From: an uncultured Gammaproteobacteria bacterium
GTDB lineage: Bacteria; Patescibacteriota; Microgenomatia; UBA10105; UBA927
Direction: 5' to 3'
Assembly (NCBI GenBank): GCA_964356315.1
Contig: CAYHHA010000003.1
Location: 12,010 to 76,009, forward strand
DNA: 64,000 nt
Numbering within the stretch: the first letter of the stretch is position 1; the number at the start of each line of letters is the position of its first letter. The translations under genes and the position numbers were made by a program. Below the pieces are notes generated by a model. That model saw nothing but the letters and a program-made list of their open reading frames with translations. It searched no databases and was not told where the DNA came from. This document shows, one piece after another, positions 1-25,110 of this stretch.

Positions 1-3000
1 GGAGAGATATTCCATATCAAAAAAATACAGAGCTTTATAGAGGGGATTTTTACGCTGAAAGACATGCCACGCGACGCCATAAATTGGCAGAGCCTTCTTA
101 TACGTCTGTTCTATACTCATAAACATTGCCTTTTTCTGAGAAAGCGAAAGTGCTTTTCCATTTTCCCCGTAAATCTCAATATCTTCGTAATCTGCGGGAT
201 CAAAAGATTGCAAATCTTTGCGCAAAATTCCGTTTAACATCTGATTTGACAGTCGCCGTAGAAGCTCTTCATGTACTGCAGGAGGCAAGTTTATAATGCC
301 TTTCTTTTTCAAATCGTCTTCCAAAATCTTTCGGATATCTGCGGTAAGCTCTGTTGAGACAGCCGGTTGTCTTGCGTGCACATCATCTGGAGCATCGGGA
401 TACGTCGCTGTGGTGACATCTGTGACAGCCCGTGAAGGACCCTGGTTAGATCTACGAAATACCATTGCAAGACTATTGAAGAGGCGTTGAATGCGCGTAA
501 GAGGTTGCGTTTCCGGTGGAGTAGCTGGAGTGGCTTGAGAAGTAGCAATGGACGCTATGCGGGCCAGAAGATATGCTTTAATGGTTGCTATTTCTGGAGG
601 ACCTCGATCAGAGAACAGAGACTTATACTCAAGATCGCTTGGGATCATATCTACGATCTTTTCGAATTCCCCTGACTGGATAAGCGCTGGTTGAGCACTC
701 GCAACGCGCTGAGCGATTGCATCAAAATTCGAGAGGTACGCACGAGGCAACAACGCCGTAGCAGTATCGAGCGTTTCAGATCGACCAATAGTCCTAAACG
801 TCACTGTTTCCCCTTTGGTCACTCCAATGGATTTCGAAGATGGGGTGATAACTCCCCAAGACCCACCAGAGGTTGTGTACCACCCATAGGTGGGAATCGC
901 CACTGTTGTTACCCCATCAAAATACTCCCCTCCCGGAGCCATAAATACACAGTTCTCCCCCGCCGCAAACACACGGGAGACGAAGGGATTTAGAGCGGCT
1001 TCACAGCCGGAATCTTTCTGGACAAAGCCAGGGTTCATTTCTTGTACAGGCTTTTTCTGTTGTAAATATTCTGTCACAGGAGATATATCACGAAGCGATT
1101 TTCCTTCTTTCTCAAGCTCGATAACCCGATCAACACTGATTACATGCTGAGATACCCAATCAAATGCATTGACATTTGCTTCATTCATCCCATTCCTAAA
1201 ATAGTAATCATTCAATAGCCATGCCACAAACGCCTGGGCCTCATAGTCAGATCCTACCAAAAACATCAATGCATCGGGTGGAATAATATCTACGCCATTT
1301 ATTTCGTCCTTCACGATGATATCTTTCATTTTTACTCCTTTTGGCAAAACCATGAGCACTGCATATCCTTCAAAAAATCTTCCAGCCGACTCGCCGATTG
1401 GCGCCTTGCCAAATTCACCGTACATTAAACTTTCTCCCGGATTGTGACGAAAACCAAATTCGAGCGTATGCCGTAAGCCGTTCATTACCTCCTCTTTATC
1501 TCCACGGGACGGAGCGTGACCATATATACCATCTTTCTCTAATATCTTTCTCGCCACTTCGATTTTTGAATCATCATGATATTGATTCAGGAGTTTAGAA
1601 AGATTCACCATGTTGTCGTATGTCAGCCAATAAGGCACTAACTCATCGATCTTTAACTTATTCATCCGTGAAATCATTAATGTTTCAGGAAAGACAGCAT
1701 TCCCATTACTCCGATATGAAACTTTGTCTCTTAAGTCTGATGCGATATGTGTGTACGCTAATCCTCCAACAGCCATTACCGGTCTTTTCAGATAAACTGT
1801 GTTTCGACCAAACTCTTCAAACGTGAATAGTTGATTGTTATATTCAAATACATCATTGGGATGAATTTGGATTTTTTCCGAATCCACAGTCGTTCCATTT
1901 AGTAAAACGTTTTGAGCACCTGAAGGGATAACAACAAACCAATCGTTTCCTTCATGATGAATTTTTGCGTTTGTACCAATCAATACTGCGCTTGAATTAT
2001 CCTGAACAACCATCATGTCGAATACTGATTTGTTTAAAGAAGACAGCGGAATAATATCCGACCCCACGATGGTGATATCTGTTCCTACGATCATCATCGT
2101 CCGGTCGTTATCGAATTTAATCTGAGTATCTTTATCAAAGACATACTCATTTTTTTCTCCATTCAAGGTATATGTACCAGAAACCGGAATTGTAATCGTT
2201 TCGTTTTTGATCGTATATGTCTGACCGGCACTCAGAATCACGCAACCTGTTGAAGCACTTTGGGCAAACACACGGGAGACAAATGCCTTGAAGGGGATTT
2301 CACACCCTTTCTTTTTCTCTGTTTGAACCTCTATAGGGACTAAGTCGGTGGTTTTTGGAGTCTTTCCTGTCGATTTTCTAGCAGTGATTACACTTTGTTC
2401 TTCATACACATCCCACCCGAGACGTACGAGTTCGTTGATGAAATCGATCTTCGATCCATCCCTTTTTGAGTAATCAAAACGAAGGATAGCACCAGGACGC
2501 GCAACTCTGTCTATCGCCTGAACTGTCTTCCATTCTCCCCATTTGCCGATAGCTTGTACCGACATGATTCGATCGATGCTCTGATTTGGGATGTGCGCCA
2601 GACTATCCCAATCATCACGGACCAGCTGTACTCCCGATCGATTTGTCATCTGTCTATCGAAGCTATAGTTCAGATCAGCAGCTACCCATGAAATATTTCT
2701 ATCTCTATACTGTTGTTCGAGTTGTCGTATAGCGACCGCCTCGCCGGCTCCATCATCGAGCACCCGAGTGCCGGGGGTGAAAAATCCATCCACACCACCA
2801 AATATGGCCGATGGCTTCTCTCTCGCGAGGTATTGCTCCCCTGTCGACGCATAAAATGGTATCGACTGTATCTCCTCCGATGAGTTAAAAAGATGCGATA
2901 GATAGTCTGAGGCGTTTCGATTCGTCGTATTCCCATACTGAGTGAAGATTGGCTGCGGATCGATGATATCCCATACATATTGCCAGATAGATGTGTATGG

Positions 3001-6000
3001 GAGTGGTGCTACAGGAAGTGTAGTTTCCATCTCAGTATATCCCACGAATTTCGCTCTATCAAATCCTGGTAGCTCAATATCCTCTGGTATCCATACATCC
3101 TGACTTGGCTGCTCATCCGGCGTAACAGCTTTTTTGAAAGAACGTTTTGATAAAACCAGCTCATCACCACCTGGTGCTCGTGAAATCGAATACGTGACCC
3201 GGTGTCCTTCTCCAATTTCAAAAATATCATCTTCAAGGATATAGCGTGCATCCCAAATCCCGGTTTGCATATCTGATCCCAACAGTATGCGACCGGGTAT
3301 CGCACCAGGAGCATTTGCCAACGCGAGGTTTCCAGTCTTTGGATCGATAAAAAAGAGTGCGCCGTTATATGTAAACGTAGTGTATTTTTCTGGCCAAATG
3401 AGCGATCGAAGGTACCGCATCAGCTGTCCAAATGCACGAACCTGAGCTTCGCGTTTCGTTTTTGGAGTAGTATCTATCGTTATCTTTTTGGATTCCAAAT
3501 CAGCTATGAGCTTCTCTTCTGCCCTAAGCCAAGGAAATCTGGTTCGGAGCCAATACCCTGCTCCTTTTTTGAGAATCTTTTGCACATAGGCTGTATCAGA
3601 CGGAGTCACTGGCTTGACCGATCCCTTATCTGTTGTGAGTGTATCTATATAGGTGAGTAAATTGAGGTAAAACTCTCCATAGAGTGCTTCGGTATCGTTT
3701 AGATATGGTGGAGAGATAAATGAATTGGGAGAATCGAACGATAAAAATTGATCCTCATCGTCATTCAGAACAGATGGTTCTGGAAGCTCCCATTCGTGCG
3801 AGCGAAATATAGCTTCTGTAAGCTTTCTAGCTGAATCCGCAAACTGCAACGCTGCCTCATATCCTGCAGGTGATTGCATAGCTTCGCCCAATCTCTCCAT
3901 GATCTGCATTCCGAGGCCTGATTGTATGATGTCTTCGTCAAATGCATGATCCGTGAGGACATATGAGATGAGTTGCTCAAGCTTTTTCACTGCTTGTCCT
4001 TTATAAGAGTCCTTTCCTCTTTCGAGTAACCTATCTACTTCTTTTAGCGTTTTTTCGGTAACCAGTTTGATGTAGGAACAATCAGAACAGCGTCCTCCTC
4101 CCGTTTCCTGTATTACACTCTGCTGACTATTGGGCTTGCTACCATCTTTAGGTGCAATGGGTTCTGTGGAGTTTTTTGAAGCAACTCGTATGACCTCTTG
4201 TATGACAGACTCTTTTTCCGGGAAATTGGCAACCCCAAGATCAATGATCATCAGCCTACCATCTGGAGAGCGTCCGATCTGAGTCGTGGAAAAATCAAAT
4301 AATTCATATCGTTTCGCGAGGGCAAAAAGCCCAGGTAGTTGTTCCAAATCTCCCTCTGTGAGAAAATATTTTTGCATCAAGCGCTCTTTTTCCATGACGC
4401 CATTCGCGGAACTGATAGAAGCGAGTATTTTTTGATAATCCGACAGACCAATAATCTGATCAGTTTTATAATCAGATATTGTGACTATCGAAACAGCCTT
4501 TGAAAGAATAATGTAATATCCACCTGCTTCCGTCATCCCCCATCCCTTCAGAAACTGTTTCATATAGGGATCAGCGATCATCACGGCGATTTCGTTGAGC
4601 ATTTGTATTTGATTGGTTGTCGTCACAATGTTTATCTTCAACACTTCGTTGTTCCCTATGTCAAAGACTTGGCGTTGACCTCCAGATCCGATTGCCGTCA
4701 ATTCCCTAGTATTTATTTTCCTTACCGTTTCCTTCTGAGTTGCTTCAATAGTCATAGGCCTATACAAGCGATGAAGTTCGTCTGAAATGGAATTTTGGCC
4801 CCTCAGGAGAGGGATTTTCGTGAGTGGATCTGAGGGCGCTGGGGATTTTTCTTTAGCTTCAAGCGCTTTGCGTATATACGCGTCGATAGCATCGTTTTCT
4901 GGAGAGCCGCGTCCCGCCGTGAGATCTTTGTACCGTTGATCAGCTTTAATGATATTCATCACCACTTCCACATCACCTTGAGCCAGAAGCTCAGATTGGC
5001 TTATTACTACCTGAGAAATCATTGCATTGAGCTGGTGTTGAGTCGTACCATCGACATTTGCACTATTTTTCAAATAACTGGACATATTCATGAATATATT
5101 TTCCATTACTCCCATTTCTTGTTTATATATTTCAGCAGGTATTATCCTATAATCGTGCTCACCAAGAATATCCGCGATGATTTTCCTAATTACATTGATT
5201 TGGACATCTCCTGCATCCTTGAGATCAAATAACTTTCTATACTGTTGGAACATCACGAGATGAAGATCATTGTAAAATCCTCTCGTTCTCATGCGCTCAT
5301 CCGAAATTTGTAAAAGCTCACTGTTAATTTTCTCGTAGTCAAACGATGCTAGAAAATGTGCGTATTTTGATAGCGATTTGGTTTTTTGGAATATATATCT
5401 CTCTGTTGTTTTATCCTGGTATACGTCCCATCCGAACTCTTCAAAAATATCCAAGTACATCGGGTCAAAGTCTTGAGATGAGGTCAGCTGATCCAGAAGA
5501 ATTATTGCACCCATTTTCGCTTTTCTCGTCACCGCTGAAATCATTTTGATCGGATCCTCATTTGCTATTTCCGTGCCATGCAACATCGCACCCTGGTAAG
5601 ATAAAAACGTATCGACACTATTATCCGGAATCCCACCTAACACATTCCAATCTTCTTTTGATAGCTGCAAACCGGGTTTATGAATATCAATTGGCAACTG
5701 TTTTTCGTATCCGTTATCAATGCCGATAATTGTCGCATCTGGATACTTACGGGAAAATTCCAAATCCGCGACAGCCAGTCCGCTCCCCAAATTGAGCGTA
5801 ACATTTCCTTTTTTAAAGACATCTTGTTCAGTCGGAGATGCAAATGCAGGATCTGCGTCCGATGTTATTGCAGATAAATTCCTAGATCTGAAAAGAGACG
5901 CATATTCCGTCATGTTCCGTACAACTGACCATAGTCCTCTCCCGGCTTCCGTGTAAGTGACGCGTTTAAAAATCCCCATGGGGATTTTCACCGAACCATT

Positions 6001-9000
6001 TTCTTTAGGCTCCAACGCGATACTTTTCAAAATAAAATTTCCCACAGGATCATAAAGAGGAAATATACGGTTTATCCAAAACCTCTCAGCCTGTATCATG
6101 AATTTTTGAGAAAACGAAAGCCCGGTCAAATTGACGGAAAATATATCCTGTGACGCTTTGACAGGAGCATTGTGAAGATATGAGAGGACATATCGGATAT
6201 TTCCGCTATATGTCACCGCTACAGCTTCCCGATACAGTAACTCCAAATCCCGCGCCCACTGCTCATCTTCGTCAGAAAAGCCGAAATACCCAAAGAAAGA
6301 CGAATTTCCACCTACACTTCTATACTTTAATAGTATTTCAATTTCTTCTATTGTAAACAATTTAGAATTTTCCGCTGCTAACTTCAATTCGGCCTTTGAA
6401 TACTGTTTATTTAAAAAAATTGCATCATGGACTATCCATAAATCATTTTTTATCGGAGAAAAATTACGAAGAACTTTTTTTTGAATAATGGTAAAATTAT
6501 CATTGAAATTAACTGCATTCCGGGGAAACCCACTTATCAGACCATATCGTTTTTCTCCTTTGCTAAGATCATTAAAATTATTATTGATTGCATCTCTCAC
6601 AGTCTTTTCATCAACAATCCCTTTAAATTCAGTAAATACATCCCTATTATTGTTAATGACTCGAGTAACCGATCGAACATTTATAAGTGAACCATACATT
6701 GCATCCGATGTGTCAGAGATAAACAAATAATTTTTATCTTTTTCCATTATATTTTTTATAACCCTGGCTTCTTCGTTGGTAAAATATGCACCATTTTCCT
6801 GATAAATATCTTCAGGCTCTAGCTCTGGAATCACACCTGAATATAATGAGCGAATGCGAGGATATCTCTGTACTTTCTCAGCTAAGGTCTTTGGTAAAGC
6901 AACTAACATCTTATGATACGATTCTAATCCTAGAAGTGCTTCATCCCTCGTTACAAATAACGATTTCGAGAATTCTCGCGGCTGTGTATTTCCCACCACA
7001 TTCCTTCCATCTACTTTGAGTGTCGTGCGACTAAAAAACTGCATCATACCCCTAAATGGCATCATCCATGATCGAGCAACATCACTACTCGGATCTACTC
7101 CTCTAGCCTTGTGATATGCTGTAATAAATCGCTTTACCCATGTCAAAAATCTAGTACACGGATTCCCGTTCACCGCATAGACAGTCGAGAATATACCGAT
7201 ACCAGGTGTTGGAATACACGATTTCGCTTCATCCTCTACCCCTTCAACCGCGATTGCCGCTTTTGCAGCAACTGTCCTTGCTACTGTTTCGAGTGGACCA
7301 ATAGACGCGCTATCATCATGAGCTGCTTGTGACACTGCGTCAGGACTATTTGAGTTTGAGGCCACATCCTGAAGCGCGTCTTCTGCTTCTTGCGTGAGTG
7401 GTAGTTCATGCTCTACCCCACGACTTTCAAGTGTATCAAGAAAAGCATCAGCTATAGTTTTTTGTTTTTCAATTTGAGCTTCTGCCATCGAGATAGCCTC
7501 TCTAATGCTGTCAATTTTCCTTTTTACGGGTGAGGTGTGCAGAAATTCCAACACTTTTTCATCTCCGAGCTGCTTTTGCAAGGCTTTGCCAAGCATAATT
7601 CCTATCGAATAATACTTATCATCTGTACTAATAATTGATTGCCTCTGTAACTGATGTTCAATATCCAGTAACCGTACTTTTGCTGCCAATTCGTTTTCAC
7701 TATTTTGATCCATTCCATCAGCCAGCGTATTCAAAAATCTCGATGCTGCCAACTCACCACCCATCTCGTCGACTATGCTTTCAATATATTTTTCCTCATC
7801 GTTTAAATTCGGATGTACCAAAAACTGCTCTTGATAGGAATACGTAACAGCATGATCAATTTCATGGGCAATAAACGCTAGAGCGCTTACTAATCCTTGA
7901 TTATCAAATTCATCGCTAATAAACAACATGTGTCTAGGCTCTCCATTTATGGTGGTTTGGATTGCCACACCAAATGTCTGCGAAGCTTTTAGAAAAGACG
8001 ATTGCGCGTCCATATTTGTTACCATAATAGGAATTCGCATGGTCACGTTACCCGTTTGAATTACTATATGAGAGACATTCAGACCTTTGAGAAATTCTCT
8101 TTGCAGTGTAGAGTATTGATCCATCTTCTCGATAAGCTCTGCGGTAGGCAATGCCAAAAGCTCATCTCTCAAGCGCTTATCGCTAATAGCATTTTTTACA
8201 ACTTCCTCTGCAACTTTTCTTCGTATTTCATCATCAATAGACGCTGATTCTATGTGAATGTTAGCAATTTTTCCATAGACAGACCGTAAATATTCTTCAA
8301 AACTTGCTGGATTATGCTGAATATCGAAAAATGGTTTTTTTTCAGAATCAAGCAGTTGATTTAATAGAATTTGTTGCTGGGACGAAGCCATTTTTTGACC
8401 TTGCATTCTATTTTTGATAGCGTTATCGTACGTTTTTAAAATGTATATTAGAGATTGTGTATGCTTTGCAATATACGCAGAAAACTGTAATGAAAATTGA
8501 GGAATATTAAAAACTAAGTAGTTTTTGGCTCGATATTTCGTAGCGCCTGATTCTCGAGTGCTTTTATCGGATAACCCAGCTTTAACTGACTCTTCTAGAT
8601 AGGACGTAACCAATTCTTGTGCTATCAGCATACTGTCACCTGCGACTTTTGTAATAGTTTCCTTTTCGATAACGGCTGATTTTTGTTGTGGTACGTTTTC
8701 TTGCACTGGATTTTTCTTTATTAATATCCCATTTTGTTCAACCCAACCATATGCAGAAAATAGCTCAGCATACTCACCTTCGACATCCGCGGATATAATT
8801 CTCGCGCCATTTTTTGCTATTCTGGACACAGCGTTAATAAACTGAAGAGCTTTTTCTTCCCCTTCTTTCAATCCATGCATCATGCCCCCGTTATTGGATA
8901 AAAACGTATCGACACTATTATCCGGAATCCCGTCCAAGGTAAACCAATCTTCTTTAACGAGTTGTAATCCTCGCTTCGTAATGTCAACTTTTTTCCTGGT

Positions 9001-18000: not shown

Positions 18001-21000
18001 GAATATACCCATACCTGTTTTTGGAGTGCATGTTTTCGCTTTCTCCTCTACTCCTGCAACTGCTATTGAAATTTCTTCTGAGAGAGGCTTTGCTGCCGCT
18101 TCAAGAGGACCAACTACTTGGTCCTCTGAGGCTTGTTGTAATTCATTTGAAGTTTGGTCCATCGTGGTTGGTTTGCTTGATGAGGAGTCCTTCCCAGAGG
18201 GGGAATTTAAATCAGGTTTGGGTTGCGTACTTTTTGTTTGTCTCAGTAGTCTCGCTACACTATCAAGAATTACTTTTATTGGACGTCTGCCTCCTTGGGT
18301 TCTGATTATTGCCGCAGCGGATTTACTCTGTCCTTCAATCATTGATGCAAATTTATCCATAACCCCAAATGCGATTCGTTCGTCCACTGACCGAACTATG
18401 TTCAATGTTCCAACTTTCGTAACCATGTGTATGATTCGATTAATCCATACTGTTTGTTTCCGAATATCGGATAATTCCTGTGCTGTAAGTTGTGGAACAT
18501 ATGCTTCTAATTTTGAGATAGCAAATATAGTCTTCCCTACTACATCAGGTGGAGCTGTTGTTACGCGCTGAACTGATTCCACAAGTAATTTTGCATTTCT
18601 TCCAAATTCTCCTTGAACAAGCGGAATATCTTTCGGTGCATCTGTCCAGCCTAATTCAGACAGTGCACGAAACACCATTTCCTGACTTCCAACTATCAAC
18701 CCGCTTAATAGATTACGAATCGCTGGCATTTGAGACTTCTCTACTCGTTCATTTAGTCCAGCGTCAAGAATAGAAACGATCAGATCTTCACCTTGTGTTT
18801 CTACAAATATATTTCCTGGTTGCAAATCAGCATGTACATTGCCCGTATCAAGAATTTCTGAGAGAAATTCTTTCACGATAGCGGAATTAACCAATCGTAT
18901 TACTTGAAGCATTGACTGTTTTTGCTCCCCCTCAGACATGTGAGAGAACTCTTCTAAAATGCTGTCAAATCCCCGACCTAGAGCTATTTCTTCTAAAATT
19001 ACCACATTCGAAGCAAATAATATTTGTGGTACGTGAAGCGCTACGTGTGGGATTGAACCTCGAGCACTAATATCTGCCGATAGTGCCTCTCGAAATGCTC
19101 TTTCATTTTCAAACACTAATTCTTCTTCAATTGCAGATCGAATCTGACGAGCAAATCCTGCAGGCAATTGAGATGCAACATTTCGTTGAGATAAAAACCC
19201 AACAACCTCACCCAAAAGGTTTATATCATGATCGAGCGCTCCCGACTTTTGAGCTGACGGTCGTTTAAACTTCCCTATCACGTCTTTAGTCTGAGTAATA
19301 CCAAAACTATCTTCATATTCAATGGTAAGAATGATTGCTTGTTTATTTGACGCTGCCCCTACTAACGGTCCAAATTTCACAATCCGTACCGGACTATGTG
19401 GATCTAACAATCCAGAACTTTGCGCTAAAATCATAATAGCCCGCTTCGTTAACCGATCGGCTTGACTTTGAGCAGATCTCAACTCTACACGATACTCTTC
19501 AGGGACCCAAAGGGCTTCAGACAAACTTTGTGCAACTTTTTTACCAGCGACACCTAGTTGAGAAAGAAAAATGGATAGCGCCTTTGGCGTCGTCATATCT
19601 TTTCCTTCAGACTTCAACGCAATTGATGATTCGATAAGTTTTTCCACAATCTGCGTTGATCGCGCAGGATCAGCTTTTTCCAGCAAAAAGACGAAGAGAT
19701 CGCGAAAAAGCCCAGAATTCTCACCCTCTTTTATGAATGCTTTTGAAAGCTCTGTAAGAAACGCTTTTCGCTCTGTTTGCGCTTTTTCCAGGACGCCTTT
19801 ATCTCCTGATTGCTCGGCAACACGCAGATCCAAGATGCCCTCAGCGCCTAAGAGCAACCGATTTAGGAATATTGTTCGTTCATCTGGCGTAATTCCAGCA
19901 AACACTTCTATAAGTCTATTTGCAGATCCATCTGAAACTGACTCTATGAATTTCACTTTCCCAGGTTTTTCAGTCGTTAATTGCATGAGCCACAAGGCCA
20001 AGTCAGATCGTTCCTTTCTCAATCCCGCTGCAAGTTGCGTCATAACAAACACACTGGGGTTTGCCTTCATATTCCCATCAGAATCCTGAGCTTGACCTTC
20101 TTCAGTCACACGCATTGAAACGAGACGCTCCAACTGCTCAGGCGTCACTGAAGTGTTATTTTCGATTTGCTCAAAATAATAATTTCTTGCAACTGATGGC
20201 TCTGATAAATACGTCACTACCGCTCGTACCGCTGAGTCAAAATCCTGATAGAAATTTGGCGTTGTTTCAATCAAGAGACGCAACGCAATAATTCCATATG
20301 TTTGTTTAATAGATGAGTTTGGCGACAATATACTGAGAAGTTCAGAAATTCGAGTTAGAGCAACCTTTTTGTCTATTTTTTGATAATCGATTGCCTCTTC
20401 AATAAGAAATTCTACATATGCATCTCGTACAGGAGAAGCAACCGGTGAAAGAGATGTTAGGAGTTTTACCCGATCAGTAAAATTCGTTTGTGGATCAAAT
20501 AGTTCTTTTTCATGGAAAAACAATTGTTCTGCCAAGTATCTTTTAACAAATGGATCACGTTCATCATACCCATGGAAATATTCATCTTTAACACTATCGG
20601 CAAATGTTCTATACCGCATAAACGACATCCGTCGACGAACAAGATCACCCTGAATTTCAGCCATCTTTCCTTTTGCCTTTAGATCACTAGCTAGAGCAAC
20701 CATGTCACCACCGGTTACATCTGGACCATTTAATAATGATAAAAATCGCGCTGAAGCAGGAATGACTATTTGCCCTAATAGTGGTGATGTCGGAATTTCG
20801 TTATATATCACCAAAAGCTTATCACGCATTGAAGATGAGGTGAAATGTTGTTCGATCCAGTCTAGATAGGCAGTTTCATTTGGAAATTCACGAACTGATT
20901 TTCGAACGATATTCCAAAACTCGACAACCCGCGTATTTTCTGGCGTACGGGATCCGGGCGGAACTAGTGAAAGAAGTGTACATACTTCTCCGAGAGATAG

Positions 21001-24000: not shown

Positions 24001-24600
24001 ATCTGTTATCTCTCCTACTATTAGCGCTCTCCCCTGCTCACCCAAAAGTATAGATGCCTGTGTTATACGCACGGGCGCTTCTGATTGAAAATTTGATTGA
24101 GTCTGACTATCTCTCGTTACTCTTTGCATCAGAAATAATGAATTCCCTCTCAAAAACGTTGAAACGGAGCTCCATGGCCTTTCGGCGATAGCATTGGTAA
24201 TCCTATTCACGGTAAGCTCTCGATCCAATATTAGTTGTTGTGCACGTAATCTATCCTCATCCGTCATCTCAACACATTGATCTGTCGCGGCATACACCTT
24301 TGGAATAAATCGGTACGTTCGGATCACAGCAAATGGAGAGCCACAGCTTCCTGATTGCTGCAGCGCAAAGGCAAAGGAAAACAAAAATCCTGCGAGAAGT
24401 CCGAGAGAGCCGGGAACCATATGATTGCGAGTGAGCTTCGTAGTTTCGTAGCTTAGTAGCTTAGTAGAACGAGACATGGGACATGAGACATGGGAAGCGT
24501 AGCTTCGTAGCTTAGTAGAACGAGACATGGGACATGAGGCATGAGACAGGAAACAAGAAAAGCGGGAAACGTAGCTTCGTAGCTTAGTAGAACGAGACAT
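1..24600 (-). CDS. Giant multidomain protein A (≥8,160 aa, 3' end/C-terminus beyond window start); N-terminal repeat + signal-peptide-like segment; M48-like metalloprotease, ABC1/UbiB kinase-like, 3× SAM-MTase-like domains. Candidate start codons at 24600, 24528, 24477 (24420 less likely)
   Basis: Minus-strand frame hand-translated over 24,600→17,800, ~12,000–12,750 and 4,900→1 with no stop; the intervening stretches were not translated end-to-end. Only short out-of-frame ORFs appear on the track across 1–24.4 kb (no in-window stop, so the tool cannot report it). An in-frame stop (TGA) lies just upstream of ATG 24600. The protein reads MSRSTKLLSYETTKLTRNHMVPGSLGLLAGFLFSFAFALQ...; motifs are listed as separate features. 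Confidence 0.85.
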   Translation of the reverse strand, partial: MSRSTKLRSYVSRFSCFLSHASCPMSRSTKLRSYASHVSCPMSRSTKLLSYETTKLTRNHMVPGSLGLLAGFLFSFAFALQQSGSCGSPFAVIRTYRFIPKVYAATDQCVEMTDEDRLRAQQLILDRELTVNRITNAIAERPWSSVSTFLRGNSLFLMQRVTRDSQTQSNFQSEAPVRITQASILLGEQGRALIVGEITDPKLQAQAIQLFDAILPYLQDILSVKRIDALSGDEVFSIVKEYDDVASILARTPPASLLQEVIKAIELESSMYSGTIPQSENESSLVLKNIKTAPNALSVNSNVSSLTQASGLDRFQIADDLKQVLWNMGEPLPDDHEFTQLLHAIAKRLQLPSDYQIIALDSDTQNAFHIANETEKIIVMTTGLIRQIKSELAKKGRVLTEDHVAAIFAHEIMHKDTKDRLGESGDWLANVANKKTSITSEEFRADREGMMLLANIGKYNYQAMIDAYTAMGLTTDRGSSHGEIIDRISHLELTATDDLHPIATYTSQKLSPRLLALFDAESKVYVIDDMATLSSSEALEKMRKAETITDFWLYYQAERHAQRVEASKGIAEKINDELQPTIRRLIALQSLRSGLQVLDDSIVDFPKFTNIKEHMRSQILSIIYDSKTMNYYDVITRSLMVDSVYRSQLPSGRVNDAEVQQISAHIAELNRILDVAISELISKNKANTNFSTKNQSFFQSVLDYTQVGNYEVDPPLAILETAFPENSQHVNSYLNDQARKIAINNGVRLPAERTITKDISEPQSIHELKSTSATNLVFGLLEQIPENTDAQQVLSVLIQNEAGVSLEEARAFAGWIMQSPEGEVKWFAFLRAYPRERIPSLYKKLSVVAPILPMRNSPHEQGKSYMESLRTIVNGDLTREALEIPQARGYMTHPLLDKINPSTSQRMKRVDGVPVVKQSDRYYYVHEYEEALRSMFGWELISRGVSEGDISPVFENPKLLNLSESEWGLATDIFTNSPTPYIHIPGVDKFKALLTSREDILNTYISQMRANGSASSEILTIIRSMGKFSISLSSDDLIYLYDHSPWEGKGRIRQFIDLAKKSKSSTDGETERLLKFFARLYKERERGEEINARVRKDEIFNHLFLQAIPDIVKRKEQEKTINAFTKEEEQQIIRVIHTLTSNGIVPDFWSDTFTVKIQKPVFIDIVNYASADTLKELGRLFSSVNSHPFYDERYQAMYGDLSLGEVCTLLSLVPPGSRTPENTRVVEFWNIVRKSVREFPNETAYLDWIEQHFTSSSMRDKLLVIYNEIPTSPLLGQIVIPASARFLSLLNGPDVTGGDMVALASDLKAKGKMAEIQGDLVRRRMSFMRYRTFADSVKDEYFHGYDERDPFVKRYLAEQLFFHEKELFDPQTNFTDRVKLLTSLSPVASPVRDAYVEFLIEEAIDYQKIDKKVALTRISELLSILSPNSSIKQTYGIIALRLLIETTPNFYQDFDSAVRAVVTYLSEPSVARNYYFEQIENNTSVTPEQLERLVSMRVTEEGQAQDSDGNMKANPSVFVMTQLAAGLRKERSDLALWLMQLTTEKPGKVKFIESVSDGSANRLIEVFAGITPDERTIFLNRLLLGAEGILDLRVAEQSGDKGVLEKAQTERKAFLTELSKAFIKEGENSGLFRDLFVFLLEKADPARSTQIVEKLIESSIALKSEGKDMTTPKALSIFLSQLGVAGKKVAQSLSEALWVPEEYRVELRSAQSQADRLTKRAIMILAQSSGLLDPHSPVRIVKFGPLVGAASNKQAIILTIEYEDSFGITQTKDVIGKFKRPSAQKSGALDHDINLLGEVVGFLSQRNVASQLPAGFARQIRSAIEEELVFENERAFREALSADISARGSIPHVALHVPQILFASNVVILEEIALGRGFDSILEEFSHMSEGEQKQSMLQVIRLVNSAIVKEFLSEILDTGNVHADLQPGNIFVETQGEDLIVSILDAGLNERVEKSQMPAIRNLLSGLIVGSQEMVFRALSELGWTDAPKDIPLVQGEFGRNAKLLVESVQRVTTAPPDVVGKTIFAISKLEAYVPQLTAQELSDIRKQTVWINRIIHMVTKVGTLNIVRSVDERIAFGVMDKFASMIEGQSKSAAAIIRTQGGRRPIKVILDSVARLLRQTKSTQPKPDLNSPSGKDSSSSKPTTMDQTSNELQQASEDQVVGPLEAAAKPLSEEISIAVAGVEEKAKTCTPKTGMGIFPTVYALDGNPCSAFWTLVNRIVTAYHNARGVDPSSDVARSWRMPIREAQEWVVISQQAKKLKIGKNIWQQNIEIPYAYRATNEYISSLPFEQRDALTALSDELSVPLIHPAWSLVLGDEDGKKYITELIRNPTENGKNYLQKILTIQGLFPKKMDVDLRQAFSNFFYKNQSYFIDSVYYQKYISPEKLQELIVYMQKNPRFIRLLSTETIALASYIGYMFDYRKDIPIGTFLDAYMDVHTRLTQSGVPLAFVHRLISDSDRYIKNDSGLYERLLYVQHLVPEIALLNRDIRRVKIKNNVLDPLRGSSLYSNRMDWTARVLPILYTQTDRIQKKTIEYIHEHFAELAPTFQQFHIKSIGSVRVWYSEQLLAAILLSDRPEDAIHKAQSIRPEMFETVMFSLSQAGFTNWEVFGNAEINMLLRALNSEDPNHELELFAMQVKKFSDKRLVLGLKYYFETIVSPDSYQKFMELSDEEIHALELYAKGTLQSNKIFVDTLGSMSRQGQAENLIAGYIQATDKSEYLDGLSLFEHSDPEQFSIALRYSPQSEDPVGMLTSLFALRNHISLNVLIEDTGEKKLKLKLSDIPELARISVELDKKFEQYKILPEVRKKILETLVYFDDPIPSGDALLQGFDLVSEFLIHTTNVLSIPKTLSTLLANKEIAQNATSYRVELMRDRLLAYPNIPREQVVATLNTFTDEQTRLFYTVLGQMKTDPPNGSVLKFDTNTEEFIGLMRSIFPNEPQSYLDKIFLAIDTPPSFIRAFLHRDRAVKLMRYAEELYKLESLTDSIWILIRDLIARDDIEIQLAEKILYTEFKKGDLNESAWLADDLYRLVTGAGMLNGIPVKNVDRIRLDLILVGEKLGLVSGGEEMKAKKRAYLLSYAKSDGLDFLGHEAEFIQDEIFATPRTPENEFLRYYRDYRSLRSFFGGKEGLVYFQERTAQKNSRTDPYIGMVASIIKHETNAGNISVVWGFKHELNDPEKLAIVLNELPDEYRSFWETYATEPYLQAPLSQNGLEFYAKNKMSELTGDQKIAVFIKSEVESRNIDQVFRWFSGILAEAERKKRIFLELPLDTVILLRVHSELPSLRELFATKTPDEIVKIFQKEGKIEQFLAIEAMVDESGSLELQKLKTEIMESLLDLEQPLEAFRNIRTIFTQNNTPLIVKLFYVFNSLFPEAKFTPKADIGSPTLLSRTNDAHRRVLIWRDLLSAAVGSGNYELETYLVKLDAGLNVIEKYRSGKHLIEKERKLLKMTMVRLSTVAFVSKKERKPKNIFLNLGMIEDMTDKELQESVNTLYANLQIHPNQTLRERVNELFLIGPKNIGTNMGASLGEVVSKIRSSRIEADARNRAYAKQFGSKLFEAKKGDLIKGQLLVGQLSPSNFYGLLQRGPSMREALGGGYTEKDLTPFGLDLLRFEGDADISGVQLAMNALKGYGHLYVFVHPDGRLNDTGKATTSDPRPEMYITDVVKQDNMKHVDIRGALPSNLISAILLDPEIYTSGDTQKMIYSVIARNGYYIPIFDKDGKLIFTEDQYDTIRESYKGLPEFSGESLAVNTAIKSVSLQQDITTVVAQRDTKKEAQRMSVVRSNVLSIVGDILAKYKIPISGNEVGKVDLKDAVLEDIGSTGRGTNVSGDADFDYTLTLNQALVGKYGSQIAQDLRVAFSALGGQEIHDPLATGTSIQTRFTNVQFSGIEGVIDIDIGINSYIDLINLPSHAAVRRRLDSITEKKRNFVVANILVAKRILKEAKVYKKGTGAGGQAGLGGIGVENWILSNNGNLEIAMKTFWDAAHDPNGGVLTIDEFKGKYGIYDPGINLRGNSFDNYVMNLTESSYVKVLETIEPYVRGSEDTEGLNASINRVVSQFTDPNPVLGIWKKSEYSILPSDLGGGNEAMLVERTDKSKWYVKFQSPDAIASEVLMDSIYKRLGIPVVESTIVQVETENGVKIGRASRWVEESDPRIAEDYKNGFVLDAWLMNFDMKYEKNRKGAIRIDNGSSVLFKSLGERRQERFQTAQVTELISMLDGYPGLDTEAIVNQIDILVDTMTDQVLINLTEQSALRVVDKKKIAEVLIRRREYLRSYAAGLRAPEAENSITQDLPKKCSDCKLLVREIDGKMDEADVIQDEYLRESAYDQIFHTIMEHINDRGLNGKEKKNLALLYHKRAGAHSKLIVADGVITFKEGYENAKYWLMTLEATALLNWQPPTPERVSRYFNQFIKVLTEINSLNTSYEQALFSKPRTYIAQFSGYLKSFFVRFIQPIRSALPSTTKNRPAQTQVQIAAEPELPSSQNDVFASPTKSEITGPLAEFIPEGYPLLLLSGTSQKNAESVEELGFAEGTLTTSFSDTQSDRFALRPEGGALLVALRTPGVFETGEVPGGAGYPGQYFKVKPKTGSQREIQFRAESTDPLLGDDVKMITDKYVDPKNMGSMQLTSEQTTFIDFVDSILRGSYIRKFDRQKIQKLAQKWEKTGISLQVFKTVPIGAPQSVGMSDEDYLELYDAKQQEKTATLLNIPVADLESWDSFQKTVGEKFPTEDAFLEAVVEEFPGKISWQWKNIQLDDLSIIRAILLNLYQLQIIYSLESLYNKVEPAPFLIFPKGRSIAGYDAYVQRSKQGQSSSVDKQPSLDSTAVKDDDKSIGLPETSAQPVPADYRAFAQAHAQNVLNTEQITQVLDIIQAVLPSLQSGVVSEEDIVAFVVNPDVENPKALLIRKLFETGPPSLQKLLELEESSKYSRYFETKPLLQKTLQFIQENSRSTDAKAEFATAKNLEEAIVKDSDYIARIQSIPKYAHSGYIKGLIEDSLDIFIARKGVTFLTEKEKETIQNNLSSQYHRAMFRSFFQFLKQLGADAKDTSNQLTYLDMNTASRSERTLCRIELFWMKYIFPIYDPAGRYIAQKKPLKHMPSVGAKYHVTIGWFKNITFTLNSRGWDTDRDRGNYTDLLFADAKMLRKRTPGSTENMPTEQEVFADDQVVLDLGSGEALADVAFSRVYPKAKIIGIDFGYDTRKKVDITKRGLQLVKEDWFTLDGIPDNSVDTFLSNNGGMMHGLKEGEEKALQFINAVSRIAKNGARIISADVEGEYAELFSAYGWVEQNGILIKKNPVQENVPQQKSAVIEKETITKVAGDSMLIAQELVTSYLEESVKAGLSDKSTRESGATKYRAKNYLVFNIPQFSLQFSAYIAKHTQSLIYILKTYDNAIKNRMQGQKMASSQQQILLNQLLDSEKKPFFDIQHNPASFEEYLRSVYGKIANIHIESASIDDEIRRKVAEEVVKNAISDKRLRDELLALPTAELIEKMDQYSTLQREFLKGLNVSHIVIQTGNVTMRIPIMVTNMDAQSSFLKASQTFGVAIQTTINGEPRHMLFISDEFDNQGLVSALAFIAHEIDHAVTYSYQEQFLVHPNLNDEEKYIESIVDEMGGELAASRFLNTLADGMDQNSENELAAKVRLLDIEHQLQRQSIISTDDKYYSIGIMLGKALQKQLGDEKVLEFLHTSPVKRKIDSIREAISMAEAQIEKQKTIADAFLDTLESRGVEHELPLTQEAEDALQDVASNSNSPDAVSQAAHDDSASIGPLETVARTVAAKAAIAVEGVEDEAKSCIPTPGIGIFSTVYAVNGNPCTRFLTWVKRFITAYHKARGVDPSSDVARSWMMPFRGMMQFFSRTTLKVDGRNVVGNTQPREFSKSLFVTRDEALLGLESYHKMLVALPKTLAEKVQRYPRIRSLYSGVIPELEPEDIYQENGAYFTNEEARVIKNIMEKDKNYLFISDTSDAMYGSLINVRSVTRVINNNRDVFTEFKGIVDEKTVRDAINNNFNDLSKGEKRYGLISGFPRNAVNFNDNFTIIQKKVLRNFSPIKNDLWIVHDAIFLNKQYSKAELKLAAENSKLFTIEEIEILLKYRSVGGNSSFFGYFGFSDEDEQWARDLELLYREAVAVTYSGNIRYVLSYLHNAPVKASQDIFSVNLTGLSFSQKFMIQAERFWINRIFPLYDPVGNFILKSIALEPKENGSVKIPMGIFKRVTYTEAGRGLWSVVRNMTEYASLFRSRNLSAITSDADPAFASPTEQDVFKKGNVTLNLGSGLAVADLEFSRKYPDATIIGIDNGYEKQLPIDIHKPGLQLSKEDWNVLGGIPDNSVDTFLSYQGAMLHGTEIANEDPIKMISAVTRKAKMGAIILLDQLTSSQDFDPMYLDIFEEFGWDVYQDKTTERYIFQKTKSLSKYAHFLASFDYEKINSELLQISDERMRTRGFYNDLHLVMFQQYRKLFDLKDAGDVQINVIRKIIADILGEHDYRIIPAEIYKQEMGVMENIFMNMSSYLKNSANVDGTTQHQLNAMISQVVISQSELLAQGDVEVVMNIIKADQRYKDLTAGRGSPENDAIDAYIRKALEAKEKSPAPSDPLTKIPLLRGQNSISDELHRLYRPMTIEATQKETVRKINTRELTAIGSGGQRQVFDIGNNEVLKINIVTTTNQIQMLNEIAVMIADPYMKQFLKGWGMTEAGGYYIILSKAVSIVTISDYKTDQIIGLSDYQKILASISSANGVMEKERLMQKYFLTEGDLEQLPGLFALAKRYELFDFSTTQIGRSPDGRLMIIDLGVANFPEKESVIQEVIRVASKNSTEPIAPKDGSKPNSQQSVIQETGGGRCSDCSYIKLVTEKTLKEVDRLLERGKDSYKGQAVKKLEQLISYVLTDHAFDEDIIQSGLGMQIMERLGEAMQSPAGYEAALQFADSARKLTEAIFRSHEWELPEPSVLNDDEDQFLSFDSPNSFISPPYLNDTEALYGEFYLNLLTYIDTLTTDKGSVKPVTPSDTAYVQKILKKGAGYWLRTRFPWLRAEEKLIADLESKKITIDTTPKTKREAQVRAFGQLMRYLRSLIWPEKYTTFTYNGALFFIDPKTGNLALANAPGAIPGRILLGSDMQTGIWDARYILEDDIFEIGEGHRVTYSISRAPGGDELVLSKRSFKKAVTPDEQPSQDVWIPEDIELPGFDRAKFVGYTEMETTLPVAPLPYTSIWQYVWDIIDPQPIFTQYGNTTNRNASDYLSHLFNSSEEIQSIPFYASTGEQYLAREKPSAIFGGVDGFFTPGTRVLDDGAGEAVAIRQLEQQYRDRNISWVAADLNYSFDRQMTNRSGVQLVRDDWDSLAHIPNQSIDRIMSVQAIGKWGEWKTVQAIDRVARPGAILRFDYSKRDGSKIDFINELVRLGWDVYEEQSVITARKSTGKTPKTTDLVPIEVQTEKKKGCEIPFKAFVSRVFAQSASTGCVILSAGQTYTIKNETITIPVSGTYTLNGEKNEYVFDKDTQIKFDNDRTMMIVGTDITIVGSDIIPLSSLNKSVFDMMVVQDNSSAVLIGTNAKIHHEGNDWFVVIPSGAQNVLLNGTTVDSEKIQIHPNDVFEYNNQLFTFEEFGRNTVYLKRPVMAVGGLAYTHIASDLRDKVSYRSNGNAVFPETLMISRMNKLKIDELVPYWLTYDNMVNLSKLLNQYHDDSKIEVARKILEKDGIYGHAPSRGDKEEVMNGLRHTLEFGFRHNPGESLMYGEFGKAPIGESAGRFFEGYAVLMVLPKGVKMKDIIVKDEINGVDIIPPDALMFLVGSDYEAQAFVAWLLNDYYFRNGMNEANVNAFDWVSQHVISVDRVIELEKEGKSLRDISPVTEYLQQKKPVQEMNPGFVQKDSGCEAALNPFVSRVFAAGENCVFMAPGGEYFDGVTTVAIPTYGWYTTSGGSWGVITPSSKSIGVTKGETVTFRTIGRSETLDTATALLPRAYLSNFDAIAQRVASAQPALIQSGEFEKIVDMIPSDLEYKSLFSDRGPPEIATIKAYLLARIASIATSQATPATPPETQPLTRIQRLFNSLAMVFRRSNQGPSRAVTDVTTATYPDAPDDVHARQPAVSTELTADIRKILEDDLKKKGIINLPPAVHEELLRRLSNQMLNGILRKDLQSFDPADYEDIEIYGENGKALSLSQKKAMFMSIEQTYKKALPIYGVAWHVFQRKNPLYKALYFFDMEYLS
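2440..2800 (-). other. Class I SAM-dependent methyltransferase-like domain (copy 3) in giant A
   Basis: GTRVLDDGAGEAVAIRQLEQQYRDRNISWVAADLNYSFDRQ…QLVRDDWDSLAHIPNQSIDRIMSVQAIGKW. Confidence 0.45.
5640..5870 (-). other. Class I SAM-dependent methyltransferase-like domain (copy 2) in giant A
   Basis: GNVTLNLGSGLAVADLEFSRKYPDATIIGIDNGYEKQ…DWNVLGGIPDNSVDTFLSYQ. It is paralogous to copy 1. This is also the source of the look-alike + strand artefact ORFs at 5720 and 8882. Confidence 0.55.
7070..7330 (-). repeat. Intragenic dispersed repeat X, copy 2 (~80–85% nt identity to 17,882–18,140); encodes GPLE…GIGIF.TVYA.NGNPC…TAYH.ARGVDPSSDVARSW module
   Basis: Direct comparison gives 'gatcgagcaacatcactactcggatctac[t/c]cctctagc…' at 7,070 versus 17,882. 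The proteins also align. Confidence 0.7.
8890..9125 (-). other. Class I SAM-dependent methyltransferase-like domain (copy 1) in giant A
   Basis: ADDQVVLDLGSGEALADVAFSRVYPKAKIIGIDFGYD…DWFTLDGIPDNSVDTFLSNN. Motif I is VLDxGxG, motif II is IIGID, and post-II is D.SVD. Confidence 0.55.
12020..12480 (-). other. Possible atypical (lipid/protein) kinase-like segment in giant A
   Basis: …GGGNEAMLVERTDKSKWYVKFQ…DSIYKRLGIPVVE…NGFVLDAWLMNFDMKYEKNRKGAIRIDNGSSVLF. This fits a Lys – catalytic D..N – (I)D.G arrangement reminiscent of PI3/4K- or CotH-like atypical kinases. Motif-level only. Confidence 0.25.
17882..18140 (-). repeat. Intragenic dispersed repeat X, copy 1
   Basis: See copy 2. The two copies are ~10.8 kb apart within giant A. 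Confidence 0.7.
18650..19600 (-). other. ABC1/UbiB-family atypical kinase-like domain in giant A
   Basis: LGVAGKKVAQSLSEALWVPEEYRVELRSAQSQAD (ABC1 N-lobe LGP.fIKlGQ..StR.DllP.ey..eL..LQD); IVKFGPLVGAASNKQ (P.AaASiaQVH); VHADLQPGNIFV…ILDAGL (HaDpHPGNilv…IDfG). HADLQPGN lies at ~18,820–18,843. Confidence 0.6.
23128..23580 (-). other. Peptidase M48 (HtpX/Ste24)-like zinc metalloprotease module in giant A
   Basis: Translation …DSDTQNAFHIANETEKIIVMTTGLIRQIKSELAKKGRVLTEDHVAAIFAHEIMHKD…SEEFRADREGMMLLAN. It matches the M48 pattern NAFA…V.V.TGLL…E.EAV.AHEI.H … EF.AD. The HEIMH codons sit at ~23,359–23,373. Confidence 0.6.
24343..24420 (-). other. Signal-peptide-like / N-terminal hydrophobic segment of giant protein A (…KLTRNH-MVPGSLGLLAGFLFSFAFALQQSGS)
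   Basis: A positively charged n-region (K, R) is followed by a ~18-residue hydrophobic core and an A-x-A-like site (AFA|LQ). There is no lipobox. Confidence 0.5.
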
Positions 24601-24612
24601 GGGACAAGAAAC
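24434..24612 (-). repeat. Tandem repeat (units of 51 and 72 bp, core gtagcttcgtagcttagtagaacgagacatgggaca ×3) overlapping the 5' end of giant gene A; each unit carries an in-frame ATG (MSRSTKL[R/L]SY)
   Basis: Exact cores lie at 24,499–24,534 and 24,571–24,606, with a variant at 24,440–24,478. ATGs at 24477, 24528 and 24600 are all in frame, so the unit lengths are multiples of 3. Confidence 0.8.
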
Positions 24613-24699
24613 ATGAGACAAGAGAGTAGAAATGAGATGAAAGAATAGATGAAATAATTTCACGGTAATTACGGCGTAAAATAGCCTCAATTATCAGTA

Positions 24700-24735
24700 T
24701 GCAGAACCCCGTGAAATAGTGCAAGGGGTTATTAT
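24700..24735 (+). terminator. GC stem hairpin aaccccgtgaaatagtgcaaggggtt followed by ttattatatata (terminator-like on + strand; function unclear because no + strand gene lies upstream)
   Basis: Inverted repeat aacccc/ggggtt with a 14-nt loop and an A/T-rich tail. Confidence 0.2.
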
Positions 24736-24930
24736 ATATAAGTTGGTTAAGAAGCTTGGTAGCTTAGCAAATGGAAGTAGCTTAGACGGACAAAAAAAGC
24801 ATTTAGATTAGGATGAGAGTGAGCTTCGTGGCTTTGAATTTGGGGTAAGTAGCATGTAGTATGGAGAAAGGAGTACGACAATTCTCCCCTTATCCCTTAC
24901 TACATATACCGTACTACATTGCGGGATGTT

Positions 24931-25020
24931 GGATTTAGGATTTATGATTTAGGATTTTAGAGAGGCACAGGATACTAAATACTCGATACAAAATACAAGA
25001 TATTGGATTTAGGATTTAAG
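24931..25020. repeat. Dispersed direct repeat copy 1: (GGATTTA)n array + 66-bp core gatttaggattttagagaggcacaggatactaaatactcgatacaaaatacaagatattggattta + GGATTTA units
   Basis: It is identical to copy 2 (25,511–25,593) apart from one core mismatch and one extra heptamer unit. Confidence 0.8.
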
Positions 25021-25025
25021 AGTTC

Positions 25026-25050
25026 GAATTATGAATTATGAATTATGAAT
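25026..25050. repeat. Heptanucleotide tandem repeat (GAATTAT)3+GAAT
   Basis: Direct reading gives gaattatgaattatgaattatgaat. Confidence 0.8.
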
Positions 25051-25092
25051 AGTTGGGATACGGGAACCATAACGACAAAAACTATTCCATTT

Positions 25093-25110
25093 TGTCTACT
25101 ATAGTAGACA
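25093..25110. promoter_or_regulatory. 18-bp perfect palindrome tgtctacta|tagtagaca (candidate operator); third TGTCTA half-site at 25,127
   Basis: A perfect inverted repeat, with one additional half-site 17 bp downstream. Confidence 0.45.

Follow-up and report, generated by a model that had tools for sequence, protein, structure and literature searches.

Two giant genes share one locus

We analyzed a 64,000-nucleotide stretch of DNA (hereafter the window; contig CAYHHA010000003.1 of assembly GCA_964356315.1, positions 12,010 to 76,009, labelled as an uncultured Gammaproteobacteria bacterium), in which computational translation revealed exactly two very long open stretches. Both lie on the minus strand and both run past a window edge: 27,931–63,999 (12,023 codons), which we call gene B, and 1–24,690 (8,230 codons), which contains the gene that is the main subject here, gene A. 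The analysis established gene A as a genuine protein-coding, modular, multi-enzyme giant gene of an uncultivated bacterium. The 24.4 kb of it that fall within the window carry at least 11 enzyme-like modules between long, mostly unannotatable spacers, and these modules include two zincin-type protease motifs, an ABC1 kinase, two more kinase-like segments, three S-adenosylmethionine (SAM) methyltransferases, and an ADP-ribosyltransferase (ART)-like domain together with a nucleotidyltransferase. Read from its start, gene A contains the following features (aa, amino acids; Cys-loop, a cysteine-bracketed motif described below):

1–24,420, minus strand: giant gene A, first 8,140 of 11,849 codons (open frame, coding periodicity, source gene call)
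24,361–24,417, minus strand: N-terminal hydrophobic segment, aa 2–20, VPGSLGLLAGFLFSFAFAL (hydropathy scan)
24,274–24,345, minus strand: Cys-loop 1, aa 26–49, C...FIPKVYA...C, directly after the hydrophobic segment
23,221–23,589, minus strand: M48/HtpX-like zincin, aa 278–400 (Pfam PF01435; HEIMH at 348–352, EFRAD about 30 aa downstream)
18,625–19,608, minus strand: ABC1/UbiB-type atypical kinase, aa 1605–1932 (PF03109, TIGR01982, phrog_9248; HADLQPGN and DAG motifs)
17,863–18,186, minus strand: Cys-loop (GNPC/TAYH) module copy 1, aa 2079–2186, loop C2131–C2151 and then TAYH..ARGVDPSSDVARSW
12,463–14,682, minus strand: conserved cassette of about 740 aa, aa 3247–3986 (homologues, AlphaFold2 model)
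11,695–12,393, minus strand: kinase-like segment, aa 4010–4150, with G-rich loop, DAWLMNFDMKYEKN and IDNG, then CSDC at aa 4239–4242 (motif only)
8,743–9,417, minus strand: SAM-methyltransferase 1, aa 5002–5226 (PF13649/PF13847 above cut-off; paralogy; stand-alone relatives of about 250 aa)
7,471–8,733, minus strand: second zincin-like region, aa 5230–5650, HEIDH at about 5519 (motif; homologues)
7,051–7,359, minus strand: Cys-loop (GNPC/TAYH) module copy 2, aa 5688–5790, loop C5735–C5755
6,217–6,963, minus strand: module of unknown function, aa 5820–6068, with stand-alone proteins of about 280 aa elsewhere (exhaustive phmmer)
5,407–6,117, minus strand: SAM-methyltransferase 2, aa 6102–6338 (42% identity with module 1 across 239 aa)
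4,078–4,716, minus strand: second protein-kinase-like segment, aa 6569–6753, GSGGQRQVF..VLKI..IIDLG, then CSDC at aa 6778–6781 (phrog_4301, E 9.7e-4; motifs)
2,392–2,781, minus strand: SAM-methyltransferase 3, aa 7214–7343 (30–33% identical to modules 1 and 2)
1,741–2,304, minus strand: Cys-loop 4, C7373–C7393, and a beta-rich domain
721–1,005, minus strand: Cys-loop 5, C7806–C7824, and the start of a beta-rich stretch (43% identity with loop 4 across 54 aa)

Gene A is one intact coding frame

The gene A frame is free of stops from 24,690 to base 1, where about 551 stops would be expected by chance from the base composition of that strand (log10 P of no stop, −248), and the other two frames of the same strand contain 54–98 stops per 1,000 codons. 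The guanine-cytosine (GC) content at codon positions 1, 2, and 3 is about 0.51, 0.36, and 0.33 in each 3-kb block, a uniform pattern which indicates that the whole stretch is coding in this frame. Since the frame is open up to base 1, the gene must extend past the left edge of the window. The window sequence is identical to part of a 123.7-kb contig in the European Nucleotide Archive (ERZ4201063, NODE_68_length_123744), and there the gene call for gene A starts at window position 24,420 and yields a product of 11,849 aa (about 35.5 kb) whose stop lies about 11.1 kb past the left window edge, so that the window carries the first 8,140 codons, or 69% of the gene, and the last 3,709 lie outside it. 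An earlier reading of the letters alone (the sequence-only reading) had proposed a second giant gene of at least 24.4 kb with an off-window stop, encoding a coherent multi-domain protein. It proves right on both counts, given the source gene call, the Pfam matches, and the paralogous modules, and no stop was found in the stretches that it had left untranslated (about 4,900–12,000 and 12,750–17,800). The three small genes that lie between the giants terminate in TGA, which points to the standard bacterial code for the locus and rules out a recoded genetic code.

We regard any artefact behind gene A (a frame open by chance, an assembly error, or a pseudogene in decay) as effectively refuted already. 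Positions 1–16,673 do depend on a single contig of modest coverage (about 9.7x by the contig name), and a 551-bp repeat of 98% identity within gene B indicates that the locus holds sequence that is hard to assemble. Against this explanation stand the absence of stops and the even codon periodicity, the domain matches and conserved catalytic residues along the entire length, and a homologous architecture in an unrelated metagenome-assembled genome (MAG). Furthermore, window positions 16,674–37,900 were matched with 0–1 mismatches by three further assemblies from sister runs, which back the N-terminal 7.7 kb of gene A.

Four in-frame ATGs are found near the start of the gene (24,600, 24,528, 24,477, and 24,420). 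The ATG at 24,420, which opens with MVPGSLGLLAGFLFSFAFAL, is most likely the start: it is the one chosen by the gene caller, and it aligns with the Met that begins the homologous region in the sole relative found (locus L005, see below), and we therefore prefer it to 24,477, where the sequence-only reading had placed the start. The other three ATGs fall within tandem repeats with units of 51 and 72 nt (each divisible by three) that occupy 24,420–24,614 and abut or overlap the gene start. Each of these repeats provides an in-frame ATG followed by SRSTKL, and they could represent alternative N-termini or promoter/leader repeats. No Shine-Dalgarno sequence is visible upstream of any of the candidate starts. 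In the hydropathy scan of the 8,140 aa, no segment other than aa 2–20 is strongly hydrophobic, in agreement with the signal-peptide-like N-terminus noted earlier, and the giant open reading frame (ORF) of L005 (>6,300 aa) likewise has a single, conserved N-terminal hydrophobic segment. Judged by its sequence, the segment resembles a signal peptide or a membrane anchor, and export or surface anchoring of the gene A product is plausible.

Recognizable modules of gene A are enzymatic

Two modules near the N-terminus match Pfam families well above their cut-offs. PF01435 covers aa 278–359 (E 4.7e-9; 36.8 bits, cut-off 20.3) and includes the HEIMH motif, with EFRAD also found downstream, in a module without flanking transmembrane helices, there being no hydrophobic segment beyond aa 2–20. 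PF03109 covers aa 1711–1913 (E 3.5e-10; 39.9 bits against 22.9), and the module carries HADLQPGN, which has the form of the catalytic HxDxxxxN-type loop, as well as DAG. NCBIfam agrees with these Pfam domains and rejects orthology to HtpX or UbiB: the HtpX equivalog scored 13 bits against a cut-off of 422, and TIGR01982, the UbiB equivalog, reached 46.7 bits (E 1.6e-12) of the required 487.55, which makes the ABC1 module a domain relative rather than a UbiB orthologue. Of the methyltransferases, the first is matched by Pfam at aa 5106–5217 (PF13649, 31.5 bits against 27), and chunked self-BLAST connects the three to each other at 42%, 33%, and 30% identity, with the glycine-rich motif I reading LDLGSG, LNLGSG, and LDDGAG, respectively. 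The two copies of the GNPC/TAYH module are 52% identical as protein and 79% as DNA. The M48/HtpX-like HEIMH…EFRAD module, the ABC1/UbiB kinase-like domain, the three paralogous methyltransferase domains, and the duplicated GNPC/TAYH module had all been anticipated in the sequence-only reading and are borne out here. Its PI3K/CotH-like kinase segment found no such backing, the one match being the sub-threshold HipA_C at E 0.015 (15.4 bits where 30.5 are required).

The segment at aa 4010–4150, for which PDB sequence searches gave no match, may be PI3/4K- or HipA-like at the level of motifs only, and Pfam gave no match for the second kinase-like segment at aa 6569–6753. Identical CSDC motifs (window 11,695–11,706 and 4,078–4,089) trail the two kinase-like segments by about 25–90 residues, which suggests that the segments are distant paralogues with a shared C-terminal element. 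The relatives of the HEIDH region are proteins of 442–1,751 aa, one of which has a weak Peptidase_M78 match, and the relatives of the module at aa 5820–6068 have no Pfam match. When ten unannotated segments of gene A were compared with Pfam at E values up to 1, noise was all that appeared, apart from the weak HipA_C match. A nonribosomal peptide synthetase or polyketide synthase megasynthase was considered and rejected, as gene A contains no such domains.

Very long bacterial proteins are mostly surface adhesins or structural fibres, and the signal-like N-terminus, the great length, and the beta-rich domains that come after Cys-loops 4 and 5 would suit a protein of this type. Gene A however lacks tandem repeat arrays, its internal similarity amounting to six short paralogous pairs; it has no immunoglobulin, cadherin, RTX, dockerin, or similar Pfam domain; and its recognizable content is enzymatic. 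We accordingly consider a giant adhesin or fibre very improbable.

A conserved ART-like and nucleotidyltransferase cassette

A search with aa 3501–4300 returned 102 proteins (best E 1.7e-66), all of which align to the same unit of about 740 aa. The AlphaFold2 model of this cassette (predicted local distance difference test, pLDDT, 85.3) has a helical domain, an ART-like domain at about aa 3499–3669, and a Pol-beta-type nucleotidyltransferase with a helical domain of the poly(A) polymerase (PAP)/oligoadenylate synthetase (OAS) type at about aa 3749–3987. On the strength of the model, we can thus confidently predict a CCA/PAP/OAS-type nucleotidyltransferase, since the predicted structure shows both the Pol-beta palm fold and the helical PAP/OAS domain, and the domain joined to it is ADP-ribosyltransferase-like in the model, a candidate member of the Tpt1/KptA–DarT clade. 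The catalytic GS (G493, S494) and DxD (D506, D508), together with the third catalytic Asp, D570 (segment numbering), show no variation across 37 sequences, gene A among them. The cassette is not covered by any Pfam family, its nucleotidyltransferase has no Pfam or PDB sequence match, and the cassette profile gave only a spurious PDB match (E 0.1). Compared with the archaeal class I CCA-adding enzyme, Cid1/PAP, OAS, and CD-NTases (PDB 4x4n, 4e7x, 1q78, 4rwn, 7ljo), the sequence identity is 8–16%, and the gene A nucleotidyltransferase differs from these in being fused to an ART-like domain inside a giant protein.

In other organisms, the cassette is usually the C-terminal half of proteins of 1,000–1,700 aa, often after DUF4116 repeats, and some of these proteins carry a C-terminal membrane tail. 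A profile scan of species-representative genomes found at least 120 cassette loci, in Candidate Phyla Radiation (CPR) bacteria (Collier-, Magasanik-, Sacchari-, Gracili-, Peri-, Uhr-, and Nomurabacteria, and others), among MAGs of gut Bacilli and Clostridia, and among others that carry the label Gammaproteobacteria. Long ORFs also contain it, such as one of at least 4,488 aa (L027) and one of 2,449 aa in Collierbacteria (L006).

Cysteines are rare and occur in conserved loops

Gene A has 16 cysteines in 8,140 residues (0.20%) and gene B has 10 in 12,023 (0.08%), compared with 7 in 712 (0.98%) for the three small neighbouring genes. Fourteen of the 16 cysteines of gene A lie in close pairs, namely ten in five loops and four in the two CSDC pairs. 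The loops follow the consensus C-x(3-18)-ΦΦ[PS]xV[YF]A-x(1-11)-C and span 19–24 residues in gene A; gene B has two more, at aa 7313–7330 and 11890–11912 (window numbering), one of them within its last 135 residues. All seven occurrences of the heptad are confined to loops, and shuffled sequences yielded on average 0.001 matches to the loop motif. Among 326,000 residues of long ORFs at 80 other loci, the motif is confined to the two giant ORFs of L005. The four internal loops of gene A each come after a polar linker and begin a new module.

One relative shares the layout of the locus

L005 (locus positions 1–22,106) comes from contig CAYGFH010000002.1 (250 kb), in a MAG labelled uncultured Gammaproteobacteria. 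Its A-like ORF has at least 6,366 aa and an N-terminus that is 37% identical to the first 110 residues of gene A, with the same hydrophobic segment and the same first Cys-loop, of which both cysteines and PKV.A are invariant in the alignment; it further contains the cassette and three more Cys-loops. A second long ORF lies 590 bp upstream and extends past the edge of the locus. At its end are a Cys-loop and a beta domain homologous to aa 7373–7509 of gene A (E 1.8e-7 for the match of Cys-loop 4 and its beta-rich domain to this C-terminal domain), and it has a Cys near its C-terminus, as does gene B. The order of the two giant genes is thus conserved between the two loci. Beyond the N-terminus and the cassette, nothing detectable is common to the proteins of L005 and gene A, and the A-like ORF has no Pfam match.

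Modules of gene A circulate as separate genes

An exhaustive HMMER search with aa 5001–6200 against 1.84 billion representatives gave 76 matches (best 2.7e-25), which split into three groups that each cover one module and consist mostly of small stand-alone proteins: methyltransferases, mostly stand-alone and of about 250–300 aa, over aa 5023–5230; the proteins noted above over the HEIDH region; and proteins over aa 5820–6068, some stand-alone with about 280 aa and others of 590–2,598 aa. The TAYH module had no match in this search. From these single-module groups, gene A looks like a concatenation of ordinary genes that are joined by lineage-specific sequence. Close relatives of gene A pieces were absent from GTDB representative genomes, IMG/VR, and JGI metagenomes, and the N-terminal alignment had no JGI match. 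PDB sequence searches with both halves of gene A returned nothing, as did word-index searches with aa 6641–8140 and aa 1–1000, which also failed to return the source protein itself.

Neighbouring genes and gene B

The region 24,421–27,927 separates the two giants and contains three minus-strand genes and about 1.2 kb of repeat-rich non-coding DNA:

26,674–27,900, minus strand: AAA_14/DUF4143 ATPase gene
26,243–26,521, minus strand: ORF of 92 aa
25,645–26,283, minus strand: AbiEii nucleotidyltransferase toxin gene

Gene A thus lies downstream of gene B on the same strand, as described previously, only not directly so, and the two amount to 60.5 kb of giant-gene coding sequence in the window when summed, which agrees with the earlier figure of more than 60 kb except that the coding sequence is not contiguous. 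As the giants of L005 are just 590 bp apart, the genes at 25,645–27,900 look like an inserted toxin-antitoxin or defence-type module. The ATPase gives no guide to taxonomy, its identity with plasmid genes of Treponema, Desulfosarcina, and Bacteroides being 40–46%, and the window contains no phylogenetic marker gene. In the non-coding part, a 97-nt direct repeat (92% identity; 24,935–25,031 and 25,508–25,604), built from AAATC/TAAAT-type sub-repeats, flanks 476 bp in which there is a 28-nt palindrome at 25,074–25,129. An Rfam scan of the intergenic region gave no match, and the repeat-flanked stretch may represent a regulatory region, an unknown RNA, or a small mobile element.

Gene B occupies 27,928–63,999 of the minus strand, open to the right edge; the gene call on the source contig gives it 14,806 aa, of which the first 2,783 or so lie outside the window. 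It has a PP2C domain at about aa 3080–3261, a GNAT domain at about aa 3961–4060, and hydrophobic segments clustered around aa 1500–1570 (all in window numbering), as well as FHA-like stretches by eye, and its last residue is Cys. Profile comparison suggests that it also holds part of the ART-like domain (probability 71%), and genes A and B share no BLAST-level similarity. A SecA/helicase identity for its N-terminal P-loop region is not supported, with E 0.29 to one helicase and no Pfam match. Gene B also contains the 551-bp direct repeat (47,074–47,624 and 52,618–53,168; 98% identity, or 96% over 187 aa as protein), which represents a very recent duplication within the gene or else a possible site of assembly collapse or mis-join.

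The setting of the locus bears on whether gene A could encode a polyvalent protein of a mobile element, i.e., a phage- or plasmid-borne protein that is delivered with the DNA in order to disarm the recipient cell. Such proteins fuse two to 15 conflict-type enzyme domains, including methyltransferases, zincin peptidases, and ARTs (Iyer et al. 2017, PMC5512222). Gene A similarly has methyltransferases, zincin peptidases, an ART-like domain, and a nucleotidyltransferase within a single polypeptide; next to it lie a DUF4143 ATPase and an AbiE toxin-antitoxin pair, both of a kind that is frequently mobile; and the two giants make up about 65% of the 123.7-kb contig. Yet no match to aa 1–3000 came from tblastn searches against 50,697 phage and 72,556 plasmid records, the viral contigs of IMG/VR contain no relative of gene A or of the cassette profile, and the cassette homologues sit amid chromosomal housekeeping genes (e.g., gyrA, ftsH, thrS). 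The window moreover contains no phage or conjugation gene, and gene A is much larger than the polyvalent proteins and has a signal-like hydrophobic N-terminus that is foreign to the class. We find this explanation improbable.

A putative chain of enzymes for use in another cell

The reading we prefer, with a probability of roughly 0.5, is that the gene A product is an exported or membrane-anchored chain of enzymes that works inside another cell. The N-terminal segment would bring the protein to the membrane or through it, disulfides would form between the paired cysteines outside the cytoplasm, and the modules would go to work once delivered into a host or prey cell, as an "effector train" that would be made together with the product of the neighbouring gene B (14,806 aa, with PP2C, GNAT, and membrane segments). 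Because the modules need ATP, SAM, nucleoside triphosphates, or NAD+, which are available only intracellularly, they would act only inside a cell, and that cell would be either the producer or another cell after delivery. Export and delivery are favoured, at about even odds, by the conserved single N-terminal segment, the economy with which cysteines are used in pairs, and the effector-typical enzymes.

Several observations weigh against this reading. The window contains no secretion-system gene. Pfam labels about 400 of the 8,140 residues of gene A, which leaves about 95% unlabelled, and a structure model of aa 7190–7600, made with the paralogues from the window for the Cys-loop, reached a pLDDT of 39.6 and was discarded. 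If translation begins at 24,420, no positively charged n-region precedes the hydrophobic segment, which is therefore not a textbook signal peptide. The smaller cassette homologues, finally, lack an N-terminal signal by eye, and the closest of them are also Cys-poor, so that low cysteine content may in part be a family trait.

If the cell in question is the producer, gene A would encode a membrane-anchored scaffold with its bulk on the cytoplasmic face, where the enzymes would modify the producer's own proteins or RNA. The need of all modules for cytoplasmic cofactors is in line with such a scaffold, as are the lack of visible signal peptides in the smaller cassette homologues and the basic residues R34, R37, and K41, which follow the hydrophobic segment with none before it when the start is at 24,420; many giant proteins have also been read as anchored with cytoplasmic domains (10.64898/2026.06.07.730766). 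A start at one of the upstream in-frame ATGs, on the other hand, would give gene A a basic n-region and reverse this topology. The at least five-fold depletion of cysteine, with the remaining ones in close pairs, is what one would expect in an oxidizing compartment, and regulation of the producer leaves unexplained why the chain of modules differs almost completely between two relatives. We judge the scaffold unlikely, though by no means negligible.

For a protein that is exported and delivered, as we prefer, the Cys-loops may be the points at which the chain is nicked or recognized. Toxins of the AB type (diphtheria toxin, botulinum neurotoxins, Pseudomonas exotoxin A) have disulfide-bracketed activation loops between their modules, and the loops of gene A are analogous in that two cysteines about 14–25 residues apart enclose a conserved motif at a module junction. 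They differ in that ΦΦPxV[YF]A resembles the c-region of a signal-peptidase site rather than a furin or trypsin site, and no protease site of known type is present. The positions of the loops, at the mature N-terminus and at module starts, together with this c-region-like motif, fit processing or recognition sites, which we put forward as a hypothesis only. In its fullest form, the loops would constitute a processing code particular to this family: the giants would be polyproteins that are nicked at the loops (e.g., after V[YF]A, signal-peptidase-like) and linked by disulfides until, inside a host or prey cell, they meet a reducing cytoplasm that would set a dozen enzymes free at the same time. 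We think this rather doubtful. If true, it would amount to the activation loop of AB toxins extended to many cargoes, in a host-dependent bacterial lineage.

Relation to known giant and multi-domain proteins

MARTX toxins are single secreted polypeptides with unrelated effector domains that act in the target cell, and they have RTX/GD-rich repeats, an autoprocessing cysteine protease, and a C-terminal type I secretion system signal. Gene A is analogous in being a train of unrelated enzymatic domains in one polypeptide; it differs in that its window part has no RTX repeats or cysteine protease by Pfam, in its N-terminal hydrophobic segment, and in being more than twice as long.

Close parallels are the giant multi-enzyme ORFs described from Omnitrophota and a few other phyla, which combine signal peptides and near-unique sequences with very low Pfam coverage, and which were read as effectors or weapons against other cells (10.1101/2023.11.21.568195; 10.64898/2026.06.07.730766; 10.64898/2026.06.04.730025). 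Among the published giants is a class whose members have a signal peptide but no further membrane segment (10.1101/2023.11.21.568195; 10.64898/2026.06.07.730766), and the named groups comprise the "Archaeovorin" type (West-Roberts et al. 2023, 10.1101/2023.11.21.568195) and the "multi-enzyme" class (Nielsen & Lui 2026, 10.64898/2026.06.07.730766). Gene A belongs to this general kind. Like the Omnitrophota giants, it exceeds 10,000 aa, has very low Pfam coverage and an almost unique sequence, is tiled with varied enzyme domains (methyltransferases and peptidases; GNAT and a Ser/Thr phosphatase in gene B), and has a signal-like N-terminus and no visible Shine-Dalgarno sequence. The Archaeovorin type, in contrast, has at least 30,000 aa and many transmembrane helices, compared with 11,849 aa and one hydrophobic segment in gene A, and its divergent SecA_DEAD, glycosyl hydrolase/transferase, NUDIX, and C39/S8 peptidase domains were not detected in the window part of gene A. 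The one relative of gene A is labelled Gammaproteobacteria, and its closest cassette relatives are CPR bacteria. Neither the Cys-loop punctuation nor the ART-nucleotidyltransferase cassette is mentioned in the papers on Omnitrophota giant proteins, and as we found no published description of either, we regard the cassette and the loop motif as additions to the known giant class.

Biological significance

Genes of this length are rare and their products are almost wholly uncharacterized, and with about 65% of a 123.7-kb contig taken up by the giant pair, the organism invests heavily in them. The three groups of single-module relatives indicate that giant genes can arise from modules that circulate as ordinary small genes. 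One such unit, the cassette, is without a Pfam family, confidently modelled, present in at least 120 genomes, and small enough to be expressed and assayed. The Cys-loop, in turn, marks module starts in two unrelated pairs of giant genes and could show whether giant proteins are processed, a question left open in published work. If the effector-train reading is true, gene A would provide a compact catalogue of the enzymes that one bacterium uses against another cell.

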